Below, piece by piece: positions 29,827 through 35,244 of a stretch of DNA of 35,599 nucleotides. Below the pieces are notes generated by a model. That model made no database searches and had not been told where the DNA came from. It was given only the letters and a program-made list of their open reading frames with translations. Each line of letters begins with the position of its first letter. Position 1 is the first letter of the stretch. Both the position numbers and the translations under genes were made by a program. Origin of the DNA: a virus; UHGV virus genome UHGV-0130975. The stretch is one strand, 5' to 3'.

Positions 29827-29911
29827 ATAACCAAAGATAACTCAAGTTATAAAAAATAGCAATAACCTTTGTTATTTTACTTTGGATAACCGTAGTTATA
29901 GATTTGTGGGT
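29827..29911. promoter_or_regulatory. OR region: three operators (ATAAC-N4-GTTAT) with divergent pR (minus) and pRM (plus)
   Basis: Palindromes GATAACtcaaGTTATA (29836-29851), AATAACctttGTTATT (29861-29876) and GATAACcgtaGTTATA (29885-29900), spaced 24-25 bp centre to centre. Minus-strand pR candidate: -35 TTGCTA (29857-29862), -10 TATCTT (29834-29839). Confidence 0.7.
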
Positions 29912-30619
29912 ATGAAAACATTCGCAGAAAGACTAAATGCAGCCATGAGCTCAGCAGGGGTATCACAATCACAGCTTGCTGACATGGTTGGAATATCTCA
30001 GCCAGCCATACAGAAGATGTCGTCCGGTAAAACAAACGGATCTCGCAAGATGGTTGAATTAGCCAATGCTTTAAAAGTGCGCCCTGAATGGCTTAGTTCT
30101 GGTATTGGTGAAATGAGGGATGGTGCACATGAAGAACCATCCAATGTCCGTGAGTCATCTTTAAAAGCTGTGGTATGGGAAGACATTAAAAGAAACGATG
30201 ACGAGTTTGTTGCGTTGCCTCTTCTTAACGTTTCGCTTTCAGCTGGAAGCGGTAGCTGCGAGCTAGAGGAATCATCGGAGTTCTCTTTGGTTTTCAGAAA
30301 GCACTATCTGAAAAAGATGGGAGTATCTGAAAGATCAGCCAAGCTAGTTAGGGTTGTAGGGCAAAGCATGGAACCAACGCTTCACGATGGCGATGTTGTT
30401 GGTGTTAACACGCAAGATACCACCATCAGAGATGGTAAAACCTACGCTATTTGCCAGTCTGATTTGTTACGAGTAAAAACATTAATCGCCACCCCTACAT
30501 CGGTGATAATCAGATCAATAAATCGCGAAGAGTACCCGGATGAAGTAATGGATAGAGATGAATTTCATGAAACCGTAAGGATTATTGGCAGAGTATTCTG
30601 GTCGTCTCATAGTTGGTAA
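29912..30619 (+). CDS. cI: CI prophage repressor (LexA-like autocleaving, 235 aa)
   Basis: N-terminal HTH (VSQSQLADMVGISQPAIQKM); C-terminal S24 peptidase domain with a likely Ala-Gly cleavage site (SLSAGSG) and Ser/Lys dyad context (VVGQSMEPTL ... KTLI). Start chosen at ATG 29912 (leaderless-like, as for lambda cI from pRM); ORF-track start 29882 lies inside OR3. Confidence 0.9.
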   Translation: MKTFAERLNAAMSSAGVSQSQLADMVGISQPAIQKMSSGKTNGSRKMVELANALKVRPEWLSSGIGEMRDGAHEEPSNVRESSLKAVVWEDIKRNDDEFVALPLLNVSLSAGSGSCELEESSEFSLVFRKHYLKKMGVSERSAKLVRVVGQSMEPTLHDGDVVGVNTQDTTIRDGKTYAICQSDLLRVKTLIATPTSVIIRSINREEYPDEVMDRDEFHETVRIIGRVFWSSHSW

Positions 30620-30659: not shown

Positions 30660-30956
30660 ATGGAATTTCTGATAGTTTTTGTTGTTGTTTTGGTCATCAT
30701 TCTTTTTGTTTTGCTAAGCATTAGTAAAAAGCTATCTCAAGTGATTGAACATAGCTCTAATCGCGCAAAAGAAGAAGAGCATCTAATTGATATAAAAGAG
30801 ATTCTCTCTGATATAAAAATCACATTAGATGAAATAAAATACACAACAGATCTAATTGAACAGTATAAAATACCAACCCCAAACGAGAGAAAAGCAATAG
30901 ATCAATATCGTATTGACTTAGAAATCGACGAAATGCTAAGCAAAAGAAAAGACTAA
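30660..30956 (+). CDS. Small single-pass membrane protein with charged coiled-coil tail (98 aa); low-GC moron downstream of cI
   Basis: ATG 30660 with GGAGGG 5 nt upstream; N-terminal TM helix (FLIVFVVVLVIILFVLLSI); strongly AT-rich compared with cI; own terminator downstream. Occupies the lambda rexAB position. Confidence 0.65.
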   Translation: MEFLIVFVVVLVIILFVLLSISKKLSQVIEHSSNRAKEEEHLIDIKEILSDIKITLDEIKYTTDLIEQYKIPTPNERKAIDQYRIDLEIDEMLSKRKD

Positions 30957-31640: not shown

Positions 31641-31913
31641 ATGACAGTAGTCATTACATATCTGGCTGACGATAACGCCAGAAATCGCCGCAGAGCACGC
31701 AGGCAGGCTCAACGTGAACAGGCAATGCAAGAGCAGAGACTTGCGCGAAAAATTGCGCTAAAGATCTCTAGTTGCGTCAGAGCAGACAAAGCAGCATCAC
31801 TCGGAAGCCTTCGCTGCAAGAAGGCAGATGAATGCAGTGGAAGTATTTGCCTGCCAAACGTAGCCATTTACGCGGCAGGCTACCGGAAATCAAAACAACT
31901 GACAGCAAGATGA
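31641..31913 (+). CDS. N: N-like transcription antiterminator (90 aa; phage 21 / P22 gp24 type)
   Basis: GGAGG 5 nt upstream; arginine-rich motif (NARNRRRARRQAQREQ); C-terminal ...LPNVAIYAAGYRKSKQLTAR recalled as close to P22 gp24. Confidence 0.85.
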   Translation: MTVVITYLADDNARNRRRARRQAQREQAMQEQRLARKIALKISSCVRADKAASLGSLRCKKADECSGSICLPNVAIYAAGYRKSKQLTAR

Positions 31914-31971: not shown

Positions 31972-32058
31972 ATGGAAGAAGAATTTGAAGAGTTCGAAGA
32001 GCATCCGCAGGATGTGATGGAACAATACCAGGACTATCCGTATGACTACGACTATTGA
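31972..32058 (+). CDS. Candidate micro-ORF: 28-aa highly acidic peptide (MEEEFEEFEEHPQDVMEQYQDYPYDYDY)
   Basis: ATG 31972 with GAGGTGAG upstream; 12 of 28 residues are Asp/Glu and there are 5 Tyr; 3' end overlaps the ral start by 17 nt in a different frame. Confidence 0.3.
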   Translation: MEEEFEEFEEHPQDVMEQYQDYPYDYDY

Positions 32059-32242
32059 TAAAAATCAATGGTGTGGACAATTCAAGCGATGCAATGGATG
32101 CAAGCTGCAATCGGAATGCATGGTTAAGCCTGAAGAAATGTTCCCTGTAATGGAGGATGGGAAATATGTCGATAAATGGGCAATACGAACGACGGCAATG
32201 ATTGCCAGAGAACTTGGTAAACAGAATAACAAGGCTGCCTGA
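32042..32242 (+). CDS. ral: Restriction alleviation protein Ral (66 aa)
   Basis: MTTTIDKNQWCGQFKRCNGCKLQSECMVKPEEMFPVMEDGKYVDKWAIRTTAMIARELGKQNNKAA recalled as lambda Ral. Confidence 0.9.
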   Translation: MTTTIDKNQWCGQFKRCNGCKLQSECMVKPEEMFPVMEDGKYVDKWAIRTTAMIARELGKQNNKAA

Positions 32243-32417
32243 TGGTGGCCTTTATTTTTGGCATAAACAACAGAATAAACACTGCGCTGTGTATTCATTC
32301 CAACGAGTGAATACACGGAGCAATGTCGCTCGTAACTAAACAGGAGCCGACTTGTTCTGATTATTGGAAATCTTCTTTGCCCTCCAGTGTGAGGGCAATT
32401 TTTTTGACGGAGGATAT

Positions 32418-33386
32418 ATGAGTGAAGTAACAGATTTAGTTGTTATTGAAAAAGCAAATGCAATGACTGTATTTCAGTCTGCCGACCAGATTGAAGAAAT
32501 CCTTCAAAAGGTTGAACGTGAAGTTATGTCCTTTGTGCCTGATATCACAACGGCAAAGGGCAGAAAGGAGATCGCTTCTCTGGCGTATAAAGTTGCGCAG
32601 ACGAAAACATATCTCGATGGTCTTGGCAAAGACCTTGTTGCTGAACTGAAGGAAATTCCAAAGCTAATTGATGCCAACCGCAAGACAGTGCGCGATCGCC
32701 TTGATGAACTGAAAGCCAAGGCGCGCCAGCCTCTTACTGATTATGAGGAGGAGCAGGCACGGATTAAAGCCGAAGAAGAAGCTAAGGCAGCAGCTGAAGC
32801 TCTCGCAAAGCAAATTGAGTCTGACCATGAAATAGCGATTTTGATGGATCGCGAATTTGACCGCCAAAGAGAAGAGGCAAGACTCAAAGCGGAGCAGGAA
32901 AAGCGAGAGCATGAAGAACGCTTAAAAAGAGAAGCTGAAGAGAAAGCCAGAGCAGAAGCCGAAGCAAAGGCAAAAGCCGAAATTGAAGCAGCAGCAAGGC
33001 GAGAAGCAGAAGCTAAGGCCGCAGCGGAACGTGCAGAGCGTGAACGCATTGAAGCCGAGCAACGAGCACAGCGCGAAGCAAAAGAGGCAGCAGAACGAGC
33101 TGAAAGAGAAAAGCAGGCAGCAATTGAAGCAGAACGCAGAAAAGCACAGGAGGAGGCTGAACGAATCCGTCGCGAGGCTGAAGCAAAAGAGCAAGCCAGA
33201 ATAGCAGAAGAAAAAAGAATCAAGGACGAAGAAGAGCGTAGAGCAAAGGATAAAGCTCACCGGAAAGAAGTAAATAACAAAATACTTGCTGACCTTATCA
33301 AGGTTGGCGCATCAGAAGATGTTGCTAAAAATATCATAACAGCCATCGTAAAAGGCGAAGTATTCGCAACAAAAATAACCTACTAA
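32418..33386 (+). CDS. Hypothetical protein with about 150-aa E/K/R/A-rich predicted single alpha-helix/coiled-coil core (322 aa)
   Basis: ATG 32418 with GGAGGA upstream; globular N-terminal about 110 aa, central EAEAKAKAEIEAAARREAEAKAAAERAERERIEAEQRAQREAKEAAERAEREKQAAIEAERRKAQEEAERIRREAEAK, globular C-terminal about 45 aa. Antisense ORFs in the track over this region are low-complexity artefacts. Confidence 0.7.
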   Translation: MSEVTDLVVIEKANAMTVFQSADQIEEILQKVEREVMSFVPDITTAKGRKEIASLAYKVAQTKTYLDGLGKDLVAELKEIPKLIDANRKTVRDRLDELKAKARQPLTDYEEEQARIKAEEEAKAAAEALAKQIESDHEIAILMDREFDRQREEARLKAEQEKREHEERLKREAEEKARAEAEAKAKAEIEAAARREAEAKAAAERAERERIEAEQRAQREAKEAAERAEREKQAAIEAERRKAQEEAERIRREAEAKEQARIAEEKRIKDEEERRAKDKAHRKEVNNKILADLIKVGASEDVAKNIITAIVKGEVFATKITY

Positions 33387-33410: not shown

Positions 33411-33542
33411 ATGATTTACGCAATCGCGGGAGGCGCTCGCATGGGTGCCTTCCAACTAAATGAATCTTTACTTGAACGAATCACCCGTAAATTACGTGAC
33501 GGATGGAAAAGAGTTGAGGTCTTATTATGCGCAATGAAATAG
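33411..33542 (+). CDS. cIII: CIII-like protein (43 aa; FtsH inhibitor)
   Basis: Not in the ORF track. AAGGA 7 nt upstream; MIYAIAGGARMGAFQLNESLLERITRKLRDGWKRV... resembles lambda CIII (MQYAIAG...ESLLERITRKLRDGWKRL) from memory. Confidence 0.8.
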   Translation: MIYAIAGGARMGAFQLNESLLERITRKLRDGWKRVEVLLCAMK

Positions 33543-33679
33543 CCATCAATCACCAGATGCTTCGTGCAGCACAGAACAAAGCAGTAATAGCCAGATTTAT
33601 TGGTGATTCAAAAATGTGGATTGAAGCAAATAAAGCGATGAAATCAGCTATCAACCTTCCGTGGTATCGCAGGAAATGA
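33527..33679 (+). CDS. kil: Kil-like small protein (50 aa)
   Basis: Not in the ORF track. GAGG upstream; position immediately after cIII; FIGDSKMW motif recalled as resembling lambda Kil. Function not asserted. Confidence 0.5.
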   Translation: MRNEIAINHQMLRAAQNKAVIARFIGDSKMWIEANKAMKSAINLPWYRRK

Positions 33680-33754
33680 GTTTTACAGATAACTGGTCAG
33701 ACGAAGAATTCATTCGTCAGATGAAAGAATTAATCGGTAACGAAGGAGATATTC

Positions 33755-33925
33755 ATGTCACTTGCAACCACAGTGAAGGAGAGCAAGTTACAGAGACGCA
33801 TGTACACGCAGCAGGCGTTAATGTATCGCCAGAAGGGAGATCGTGAAGGTGTTCGCGTATTTTTAAATGCGGCAAAGACTGAAGTATTAAATCAGCGTTA
33901 TTTCCTTGGGCCATGTCCATTCTGA
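33755..33925 (+). CDS. Small protein (56 aa) immediately upstream of erf, Arf-like by position
   Basis: ATG 33755 with AGGAG 6 nt upstream; ends 10 nt before erf. Competes with the overlapping ORF-track frame 33676-33846; this frame has the better RBS. Confidence 0.45.
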   Translation: MSLATTVKESKLQRRMYTQQALMYRQKGDREGVRVFLNAAKTEVLNQRYFLGPCPF

Positions 33926-33935
33926 GAACAATCAT

Positions 33936-34541
33936 ATGAGCAAAGAATTTTACGCAAGACTGGCAGCTATTCAGGAGAATCTGAACGCGCCAAAGAATCA
34001 GTACAACTCATTCGGAAAATATAAATACAGAAGCTGCGAAGACATTCTTGAAGGCGTTAAGCCGTTACTGAATGGCCTGTTTTTATCAATCAGCGATGAA
34101 GTTGTGTTGATTGGTGATCGGTATTATGTGAAAGCCACGGCAACTATTACCGATGGCGAAAACAGTCATACGGCAACCGCACTAGCACGAGAGGAAGAAA
34201 GCAAGAAAGGAATGGATTCTGCACAAGTTACGGGAGCTACAAGCTCTTATGCACGCAAGTATTGCCTCAATGGTTTGTTCGGCATAGATGATGCGAAAGA
34301 TGCAGATACAGACGAGCATAAACATCAGCAGAACGCAGCAGCAAAGCAATCAAAACCATCACCTACACCTGAACAGGTTCTAAAAGCATTCACTGACGCA
34401 GCAATGCAGAAAAACACCGTAGAAGAGCTTAAACAGGCGTTCGCCAAAGCGTGGAAGCTGCTCGAAGGCACACCGGAGCAGCACAAAGCGCAGGACGTTT
34501 ACAACATCAGACGAGACGAATTAGAAGGAGCGGCTGCTTAA
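33936..34541 (+). CDS. erf: Erf single-strand annealing recombinase (201 aa)
   Basis: MSKEFYARLAAIQENLNAPKNQYNSFGKYKYRSCEDILEGVKPLLNGLFLSISDEVVLIGDRYYVKATATITDGENSH... recalled as near-identical to the P22 Erf N-terminal domain. ORF-track start 33906 has no RBS. Confidence 0.95.
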   Translation: MSKEFYARLAAIQENLNAPKNQYNSFGKYKYRSCEDILEGVKPLLNGLFLSISDEVVLIGDRYYVKATATITDGENSHTATALAREEESKKGMDSAQVTGATSSYARKYCLNGLFGIDDAKDADTDEHKHQQNAAAKQSKPSPTPEQVLKAFTDAAMQKNTVEELKQAFAKAWKLLEGTPEQHKAQDVYNIRRDELEGAAA

Positions 34542-34924
34542 TGGCACATTCGATTACTGTAAGACTAAACAAGCCCGCAAGAGAGTTTCAGGCCGGGGAA
34601 AATATCGGATTCAACATCCGTGCTGGCGTTCAGTATTACGATCGCCAGACAAAAAAGAAAGAATGGACAAACTACAGCGCCGTTGTATTTGCCAAGCCGG
34701 GAGCGCAAGCGGATTACTACCGTAGTGTTCTTGTTGAAGGTGGCATTGTGGAAATTACCGGAGAAAACATCAGGGTTGATGTTTATCAGGGGCAAAATGG
34801 TCAATCAATCACTCTTGAATTACTGAATGCAAAGATTGGATTTGCAGCTTCAGGAAATGGCCCGCAGCAGCAAAGTAGTAACCAGCAGAACACTCCTGTA
34901 TACGACGATTCCATCCCATTCTGA
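34541..34924 (+). CDS. ssb: Single-stranded DNA-binding protein-like (127 aa) with SSB-type acidic tail
   Basis: ATG 34541 overlapping the erf stop (TAATG); OB-fold-like N-terminal region; Gln-rich linker and C-terminal ...PVYDDSIPF resembling the canonical SSB tail (DDDIPF). Confidence 0.7.
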   Translation: MAHSITVRLNKPAREFQAGENIGFNIRAGVQYYDRQTKKKEWTNYSAVVFAKPGAQADYYRSVLVEGGIVEITGENIRVDVYQGQNGQSITLELLNAKIGFAASGNGPQQQSSNQQNTPVYDDSIPF

Positions 34925-34947
34925 TTTAGAAAAATAAGGATTTAATT

Positions 34948-35244
34948 ATGCCAGCGCCTCTGTATGGTGCGGATGACCCGCGCCGCTGTTCCGGCAATTC
35001 CGTATCGGAGGTGCTGGATAAATTCAGAAAAAACTACGATCGGATAATGTCGCTACCGCAGGAAACGAAAGAGGAAAAGGAATTTCGCCACTGTATATGG
35101 CTTGCAGAGAAAGAAGAACGAGAGCGAATTTACCAGACATCAATCCGACCATTCCGCAAAGCCACATATACCCACTTCCCTGAATATATCGACCCACGCC
35201 TGCGTAATTACCGCTCACGCTATGGCGCTATCAGTAATGACTGA
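34948..35244 (+). CDS. Hypothetical protein (98 aa), possibly Abc2-like anti-RecBCD protein
   Basis: AAGGA 7 nt upstream; position just downstream of erf matches the P22 abc genes. Family name is an unverified recollection. Confidence 0.6.
   Translation: MPAPLYGADDPRRCSGNSVSEVLDKFRKNYDRIMSLPQETKEEKEFRHCIWLAEKEERERIYQTSIRPFRKATYTHFPEYIDPRLRNYRSRYGAISND

Follow-up and report, generated by a model that had tools for sequence, protein, structure and literature searches.

An Agt-family phage protein with a long predicted helical spacer, probably an overlooked accessory of recombination gene blocks

What is the 322-amino-acid (aa) protein encoded between ral and cIII in the virus genome UHGV-0130975, and what does it do for the phage that carries it? 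The window, which is the whole 35,599-nt stretch of DNA analysed here, holds its gene on the + strand at 32418-33386. A first-pass annotation made from the sequence had read the product as an accessory host-takeover factor with globular ends either side of a run of near-perfect charged repeats. The protein is an already catalogued gene product, belonging to a known but poorly understood family that here stands in a Gam-less, Abc2-type context, and it is probably an overlooked accessory of recombination gene blocks rather than a novel type of host-takeover factor. The case for its family membership and its architecture is strong, while the functional step is drawn from one annotated phenotype, that of a 51%-identical homologue, together with synteny.

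The protein is 100% identical in amino-acid sequence to the gene 33 protein (gp33) of Shigella phage Sf6 (AAQ12223.1), itself noted as similar to Orf53 of phage D3, and the DNA of the region is ~99% identical to that of Sf6 with the same flanks (tL2A upstream, cIII downstream), gp33 having no annotated function. PHROG 1376 matches residues 1-322 (E=2e-110), and BLASTP aligned the protein end to end with Agt/Mog of phage phi80 (PHI80_40, AFV29176.1) at 51% identity over 322/322 aa (E=1e-64). The phi80 record describes agt (322 aa) as 'anti-toxin for Gam; Mog (modifier of Gam)', lying directly upstream of gamL, which is described as 'host RecBCD/SbcCD enzymes inhibitor; toxic without Mog' and is followed by recT and exo, with the copy in phage HF4s annotated 'antitoxin; similar to phage phi80 Agt'. 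According to Rotman et al. 2012, phi80 gamL reportedly could not be cloned alone, with agt acting as the antidote, and phi80 lysogens are said to have behaved as recD and sbcCD phenocopies. This antidote phenotype is reported for phi80 only, not for Sf6 gp33 or the window allele, and is the single, decade-old genetic clue to the role of the family.

The first-pass annotation had recognised no canonical lambda or P22 early gene here and had held that clear homology to a known family would undo its reading. The gene does lie outside the lambda and P22 gene sets, but it is recognisable as Sf6 gp33 and as a phi80 Agt homologue. Homology to a known family thus undoes the reading in a limited sense, as the family that it matches over its full length has been named and credited with a phenotype, whereas neither fold nor mechanism comes with it. 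As a sequence the gene is ordinary, being deposited for Sf6 and found as near-identical DNA in hundreds of lambdoid and Stx phage records. Megablast matched the locus at 95% identity or above in 327 phage records, 35 of them with a query coverage of 80% or higher; Sf6, CUS-3, HK544, mEp234, IME10 and Stx1a/Stx2a phages are among the matches. What is noteworthy is the family, with its thousands of clusters, its lack of a Pfam model, its misnaming as TolA and its consistent lead of blocks that encode an annealing protein with an exonuclease or SSB. Searching 1.84 billion representatives by phmmer with residues 1-119 gave 4,969 clusters (50% identity) at E<=1e-3 and 3,464 at E<=1e-10, mostly of 280-400 aa. 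Pfam held no match for the protein, for its ends or for any of 28 diverse relatives, NCBIfam and PADLOC scans of the protein gave no meaningful match, a search of BFVD found family members only, and literature text searches on Agt, GamL and antidote returned nothing relevant. The family is very large and lacks a curated model.

Most family members carry the NCBI name 'cell envelope biogenesis protein TolA'. This identity was rejected for the window protein, which scores 9.2 bits against the tolA_full model TIGR02794 (cutoff 59.45) and has no membrane anchor and no domain III in Pfam; nor was any transmembrane-like stretch found, the highest hydrophobic fraction in any 21-residue window being 0.43, at the N-terminus. 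TolA domain II shares the long Ala/Glu/Lys-rich helix, whereas the phage protein lacks the membrane anchor and domain III of TolA and is encoded in a phage early operon. The TolA name is a low-complexity artefact and the family is systematically misnamed. As a separate observation on database records, an exact-sequence look-up did not return the 322-aa protein from a collection of 15 billion proteins, despite its 100% identity to GenBank Sf6 gp33.

Alignments and structure prediction divide the protein into three parts, a conserved head of ~115 aa, an ER/K spacer of ~135 aa and a C-terminal helix-loop-helix of ~40 aa. The layout that marks the Agt family, namely a head bearing VPDxxTxKGR, a charged spacer and a C-terminus of the form [IV]x[YF], is found complete in the window protein, and phi80 Agt shares with it the length of 322 aa, the three-part layout, a DHE(I/M)A(I/L)LM island and the C-terminal ...I.Y. 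The gene and its parts are as follows.

32418-33386, + strand: coding sequence, 322 aa plus stop, Agt/Mog-family protein, equal to Sf6 gp33, PHROG 1376 (open reading frame translation, PHROG match, BLASTP)
32418-32762, + strand: conserved N-terminal region, aa 1-115, with helices 12-20 and 22-37, the loop motif and an amphipathic helix (alignments; AlphaFold2 predicted local distance difference test, pLDDT, 85-96)
32811-32864, + strand: conserved island IESDHEIAILMDREFDR, aa 132-149, within the long helix, common to phi80 Agt and missing in 245-aa deletion variants
32868-33272, + strand: predicted ER/K-type single-alpha-helix spacer, aa 151-285, ~20 nm if fully helical (charge statistics; AlphaFold2 continuous helix, pLDDT 73-80)
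33273-33383, + strand: C-terminal module, aa 286-322, comprising the end of the long helix, a VGAS turn, helix 300-311 and a tail ending ...ITY (alignments, AlphaFold2)

AlphaFold2, given a 32-sequence alignment, predicts helices at 12-20 and 22-37, an unbroken helix from 46 to 295 and a last helix at 300-311 (mean pLDDT 81.5), low confidence being confined to the first 5 and last 6 residues, and a separate model of residues 1-150 is consistent with the full one (pLDDT 86.5). In family alignments the loop motif VPDxxTxKGR (aa 40-49) is invariant, as are or nearly are D42, T45, G48, R49, K63, D67, G70, K71, K78, D85, R88 and R92, with R103 and P105 nearly invariant, and between phages of E. coli and those of Pseudomonas the head keeps 50-60% identity. 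Its two short helices are predicted to fold back onto the start of the long helix, along which hydrophobic positions at a spacing of 3-4 are conserved over ~52-116 (a/d occupancy 0.6-0.7 against a background of ~0.1) before fading by ~145. Since the short helices cover only part of this seam, it may serve in oligomerisation or in binding a partner.

At the other end, the last 40 residues follow the family consensus HRxxINxxAxxxLxxxGLxExxAKxxxxAIAxGxIxxVxIxY and form a helix-turn-helix-like unit, with a tail of ~11 residues after helix 300-311 and a terminal Y or F in 116 of 143 family representatives. Neither end is the globular domain that the first-pass annotation described: the N-terminus consists of two short helices on a long one, and the C-terminus of a single short helix and a tail. 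Sequence searches of the PDB with the N-terminal region and with the family profile gave only charged-helix or non-significant matches, zuotin and the single alpha helix (SAH) of myosin VI among them, and the best matches of the C-terminal profile, to RuvA domain III and a UBA domain, were also non-significant (E~0.4).

The charged core is as unusual as first noticed, with an E/K/R/A content of 86% over residues 161-285 (6% hydrophobic) and 80% over 111-285, a hydrophobic content of 6-10%, and a nearly neutral net charge of -1 over residues 161-285. Against the earlier figure of about 150 residues for the spacer, the charged part free of any hydrophobic seam is ~135 residues (151-285), a conserved heptad-like seam being present over 46-116 of the same long helix. 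Whether the core is a coiled coil or an SAH was examined through charge pairing. Measured against 2000 shuffles of residues 151-285, the spacer has a strong excess of oppositely charged pairs at i,i+4 (z=+4.6 and +6.8) and a deficit of like-charged ones (z=-5.3), and even in the best register hydrophobic residues occupy only 5 of 39 a/d positions. The statistics favour the signature of an ER/K SAH over that of a coiled coil, the core having no heptad seam, and the uninterrupted helix predicted over 46-295 is consistent with a stable monomeric SAH, though no proof of one. At 0.15 nm per residue the spacer would extend ~20 nm and the whole helix ~37 nm. The protein resembles the ER/K SAH domains of myosin VI/X and caldesmon in composition, in i/i+4 salt bridges, in the absence of a hydrophobic seam and in variable length; the likeness is one of convergent composition, not of common ancestry, and here the spacer joins two small helical modules rather than a motor and a cargo domain. 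In prokaryotes as in eukaryotes, SAHs have been described as linkers or springs that are semi-flexible (PMC5378345).

The repeats themselves had been called near-perfect. They prove degenerate in the DNA: Tandem Repeats Finder (TRF) reports a period of 6 nt at 63% matches, and identity between direct repeats is 70-89%. The regularity is compositional. Among close relatives, in-frame insertions and deletions confined to the spacer yield proteins of 245, 275, 290, 300, 306, 322 and 333 aa. Of 85 full-length relatives surveyed, 81 show the same signature (median z=+4.0 and -3.4) over a charged stretch that measures 43-150 aa, with a median of 102. The composition of the spacer is conserved across the family, while its sequence and length are not, and the protein offers a clean natural case of a length-variable ER/K SAH in a phage.

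With which genes does the family travel? A sample of 80 loci from 80 species, at 33-63% identity, covered Enterobacterales, Aeromonas, Pseudomonas, Acinetobacter, Burkholderiales and Alphaproteobacteria, with downstream open reading frames (ORFs) chained by a simple in-house caller and the linkage counts descriptive, made without a permutation null. Where a downstream gene of at least 150 aa was found (70 loci), the first such gene encodes ERF in 19, RecT in 17, Rad52 in 5, a DUF3799 nuclease in 5 and a Sak4-like AAA_24 protein in 3, and the gene after that a YqaJ exonuclease in 25, SSB in 8-11 and an alkaline exonuclease in 3. Small ORFs in between include 9 Gam-like genes, 7 of Arf, 4 of cIII and several of Kil. 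The gap between the stop codon and the next ORF has a median of 8 nt and is no more than 25 nt in 56 of 74 loci. Upstream neighbours are heterogeneous, with 72 PHROG families among 70 proteins, and a RecT gene lies upstream in a few cases. Annotated records show the same arrangement, a D3-like Pseudomonas phage having the order family gene, Erf, exonuclease, and Klebsiella phage Mulock the order kil, family gene, GamL, Bet, Exo. What is conserved is the link to the recombination genes downstream, not one to ral or other takeover genes, and the host-takeover framing of the first-pass annotation finds no support in this comparison. In the window, and usually across the sampled species, the gene stands at the head of a recombination module, in the window within an early-left operon as in phi80, where agt likewise lies in the pL operon ahead of recombination genes. 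The two differ in what follows: phi80 agt adjoins gamL, then recT and exo, whereas downstream of the window gene come cIII, kil, erf, ssb and abc2, and no gam-type gene lies directly next to it or further on.

Some records of family members fall outside this proteobacterial distribution. Contigs of metagenome-assembled genomes (MAGs) binned as Actinomycetes, Coriobacteriia, Blastopirellula and Patescibacteria (L086, L139, L145, L157) carry members, and one of them, a 3.9-kb contig (L086, JAFADF010000066.1), encodes a member 100% identical to the E. coli/Shigella phage protein; for these contigs mis-binning or contamination is likelier than a true host range. Leptolyngbya phage Lbo-JY16 (H67, PP438408.1, 10663-10992), which has a cyanobacterial host, encodes an N-terminal domain 50% identical to the family head and likewise lies outside the distribution.

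The company kept by the allele itself was read from 80 IMG/VR loci carrying a 99-100% identical copy. In all 80, cIII begins at +27 or +28, and Abc2 is present in 71 of ~76; a RecT-type module is found in 5, and a lambda-like Gam in just 1 of these. As annealing protein, ~30 loci have the window type of Erf, ~20 a second Erf type (29% identical to it) and 5 RecT, neither Erf nor RecT being detected in ~20, so that this one allele occurs with at least four types of recombination module. The same protein works beside several unrelated recombinases, mostly without Gam.

These observations lead us to favour, with about even confidence, an elongated adaptor that modulates the phage recombination/anti-exonuclease module. 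Such a protein would be a cytoplasmic all-alpha rod, made early from the N-antiterminated pL transcript as the product of the leading gene of the recombination/anti-exonuclease block. Its head, possibly dimeric through the unsatisfied hydrophobic seam, and its tail might each bind one partner, with the stiff spacer keeping the two at a set distance. Because the identical allele pairs with unrelated annealing proteins and the head is highly conserved across hosts, the partners would be conserved host components or DNA-end structures (a host nuclease, a DNA-end complex or an inhibitor) and not the phage annealing protein. The protein may in this way tune how the recombination module handles the host exonucleases RecBCD and SbcCD; the ability of the phi80 orthologue to counter GamL toxicity would be one manifestation of this role, and in the Abc2-type phage of the window the protein would probably have an equivalent moderating or targeting role. 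It would be an accessory, outside the catalytic core.

Several points weigh against the adaptor proposal. The one phenotype in the family was reported for a protein 51% identical to that of the window, which lacks the partner of that protein, GamL, and among ~76 identical-allele loci the 71 with Abc2 compare with only 1 with a lambda-like Gam. The function of the window allele is putative, being read across from that homologue and from synteny. Synteny in the mosaic early operons of lambdoid phages could partly reflect a shared operon layout rather than function. Dimerisation and partner binding are inferred, and a UBA-like reading of the C-terminus would be a lead rather than a result. Lambda and P22 have no Agt-family gene, and the erf and exo genes of D3/PA73 are able to recombine in lambda when the family gene that normally precedes them is absent (PMC3945230). 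Since they work alone, the family protein is dispensable for annealing and exonuclease activity itself, which together with its absence from lambda and P22 makes it an accessory. Should the handling of exonucleases indeed be tuned by this family, it would bear on the balance that temperate phages strike between inhibiting nucleases and keeping the host viable, on the toxicity of some exonuclease inhibitors when cloned alone and on the design of portable recombineering cassettes.

Could the protein be sufficient by itself as an inhibitor of host exonucleases or a protector of DNA ends, occupying a 'gamma slot' as an analogue of lambda Gam or Mu Gam? The gene order outside Enterobacterales invites this reading, the family gene being followed at a spacing of 8-11 nt by the annealing protein and YqaJ exonuclease genes with no Gam, in the position of lambda gam. 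The equivalent place in Firmicutes phages, ahead of erf-ssb and sak4 modules, is filled by a Mu-Gam homologue, DUF2483, DUF1351 or gp157, and the authors of that survey take the shared position to argue for an analogous function of these upstream genes (PMC8093625). However, a Gam-like gene lies directly downstream in phi80, Mulock and several enterobacterial loci, and Abc2 is encoded in the window; beside either, a self-sufficient inhibitor would be redundant. Neither the window protein nor its relatives match the Pfam families Gam and Phage_Mu_Gam, and the near-neutral core makes the protein no obvious DNA mimic. We consider a stand-alone inhibitor unlikely.

Among the Firmicutes genes, DUF1351 (PF07083) invites the closest comparison, being of similar size (~280-350 aa) and, like the Agt/gp33 family, found next to erf, recT or sak4; its adjacency to an annealing-protein gene was present in the six phage records checked. 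DUF1351 differs in having neither the long ER/K spacer nor the C-terminal I.Y module. PF07083 gave no match to the N-terminal region at E<=10 and none to any of 28 diverse members at E<=0.01, the positive control, a phiS13 protein, scoring E=1.6e-34. An hhalign comparison with a 9-sequence DUF1351 alignment, which was made from phage records as a homologue search on the DUF1351 protein had given only close Oenococcus relatives, produced a weak match (probability 6-8%, P=0.004-0.006) colinear over 66-85 N-terminal columns, and a single-sequence profile comparison produced none. The relation to DUF1351 appears at least positional, homology not being established.

A further possibility is a cofactor of the single-strand annealing protein, as P22 Arf is for Erf, or a recombination mediator that loads or targets the annealing protein to SSB-coated DNA or the replisome. 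The tight and often translationally coupled linkage to ERF, RecT, Rad52 and Sak4 genes fits a cofactor, as do the few loci in which the RecT gene lies immediately upstream instead. Against it, one identical allele pairs with at least four module types, the head is much more conserved than the annealing proteins that it would serve, and the D3/PA73 genes recombine in lambda without it (PMC3945230), which leaves a dedicated cofactor decidedly unlikely.

The HF4s annotation would make the protein a Gam-specific antitoxin, as would the phi80 annotation and phenotype and the Gam-like gene directly downstream in 9 sampled loci. The window holds Abc2 and no Gam, and so 'Gam antitoxin' cannot be the general role; the single Gam against 71 Abc2 among identical-allele loci and the many members outside Enterobacterales, most of them without a Gam-like neighbour, point the same way, and as a general role the antitoxin is largely refuted and highly improbable. 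A TolA-like envelope protein, or another host-takeover, anti-restriction or DNA-mimic factor beside ral, as the NCBI cluster name and the position next to ral might suggest, can be dismissed as barely credible, given the TIGR02794 score, the absence of a transmembrane-like stretch and of a TolA C-terminal domain in Pfam, a net charge near zero (on which the DNA-mimic reading was rejected), the lack of a PADLOC match and an upstream neighbour that is not conserved.

The adaptor proposal, which these comparisons leave as the preferred reading, can be extended to the family as a whole, although it is doubtful that the family forms an unrecognised, near-universal third component of proteobacterial phage recombination operons beside the annealing protein and the exonuclease, a 20-37 nm SAH 'ruler' whose head and tail would link the recombination machinery to a host exonuclease or a DNA-end complex and so set the extent of nuclease inhibition or redirection. 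Were this so, DUF1351 would have its Gram-negative counterpart, and perhaps a remote homologue, in the Agt/gp33 family, which would also supply what is missing when recombineering systems are moved from one host to another.

How is the gene expressed, and is it sound as a gene? The signals ahead of it and the genes around it in the window are listed below.

31641-31913, + strand: N (PHROGs)
32042-32242, + strand: ral (PHROGs)
32231-32252, + strand: terminator-like hairpin and T-run at the end of ral, with a 9-bp stem holding 5 GC pairs, then TATTTTTGGC
32377-32405, + strand: second intrinsic terminator, the equivalent of Sf6 tL2A, with the GC-rich hairpin TTGCCCTCcagtgtGAGGGCAA then T7
32409-32413, + strand: Shine-Dalgarno sequence GGAGG, 4 nt 5' of the ATG (direct sequence reading)
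33411-33542, + strand: cIII (PHROGs)
33527-33679, + strand: kil (PHROGs)
33661-33846 and 33755-33925: two small overlapping ORFs before erf (PHROGs 2123 and 1723)
33936-34541, + strand: erf (PHROGs), the start of a recombination/anti-exonuclease block spanning 33936-35244
34541-34924, + strand: ssb-like gene (PHROGs)
34948-35244, + strand: abc2, anti-RecBCD (PHROGs)
32741-33223 and 32922-33260, - strand: overlapping, spurious antisense ORFs (low-complexity translations rich in S/A/R/C and F/C/L)
32983-33204, + strand: out-of-frame ORF over the core (low-complexity translation)

The ORF, which the first-pass annotation had placed between ral and cIII in the pL operon, is intact from the ATG at 32418 to the stop codon at 33384-33386, is preceded by GGAGG and is conserved in hundreds of records. 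An alternative TTG start at 32364 was rejected; translation from it would traverse the terminator hairpin, and the annotated homologues all begin at the ATG. In the position that corresponds to the hairpin at 32377-32405, the Sf6 record annotates a 'terminator; homology to phage lambda tL2A'; the T-run of this hairpin stops 12 nt ahead of the start codon, and no promoter-like site was found between this hairpin and that at 32231-32252. With two tandem terminators ahead of it, the gene together with cIII, kil, erf, ssb and abc2 downstream should strictly need N antitermination, and it belongs to the N-dependent early-left operon of a P22-like (Lederbergvirus-type) phage. No Gam homologue was found anywhere in the window, the best match having E=0.37.

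The coding strand over the core is strongly purine-rich, with an AT skew of up to 0.75, and it is because of this that long stop-free ORFs arise antisense and out of frame; the antisense ORFs, already called spurious by the first-pass annotation, were rejected as genes on their low-complexity translations. A frameshift artefact, which the annotation had also raised, was not borne out, as the intact form dominates and a single 322-aa cluster has 471 member sequences. The copy of phage CUS-3 (L166:420-1389, equivalent to window 32418-33386) carries an additional T near codon 112, and this 1-nt insertion breaks the gene into two ORFs in the annotation, which explains the half-length PHROGs 17211 (aa 1-115) and 21365 (aa 111-322) and the listing of 'hypothetical protein (x2)' in several records. 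A homologue search with a short N-terminal query returned mostly truncated proteins, and many database entries are 'partial' and end within the charged core, a probable sign that assembly from short reads is often interrupted by its low complexity.

Some minor observations concern the other genes of the window. PHROGs 2123 and 1723, matched by the two small ORFs before erf, are labelled 'recombinase' though the products are only 52-58 aa, a label that resembles annotation carry-over, and in related loci the slot of these ORFs often holds the Erf cofactor Arf (phrog_2445). The longest ORF for erf begins at a TTG at 33906, while the PHROG match and homologues fit the ATG at 33936, making the start codon ambiguous in a mechanical ORF call. 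Directly after the cI-like repressor gene (29882-30619) lies a 98-aa ORF with a hydrophobic N-terminus (30660-30956, PHROG 18389), which from its position, that of lambda rexAB, is a candidate prophage-expressed exclusion gene.

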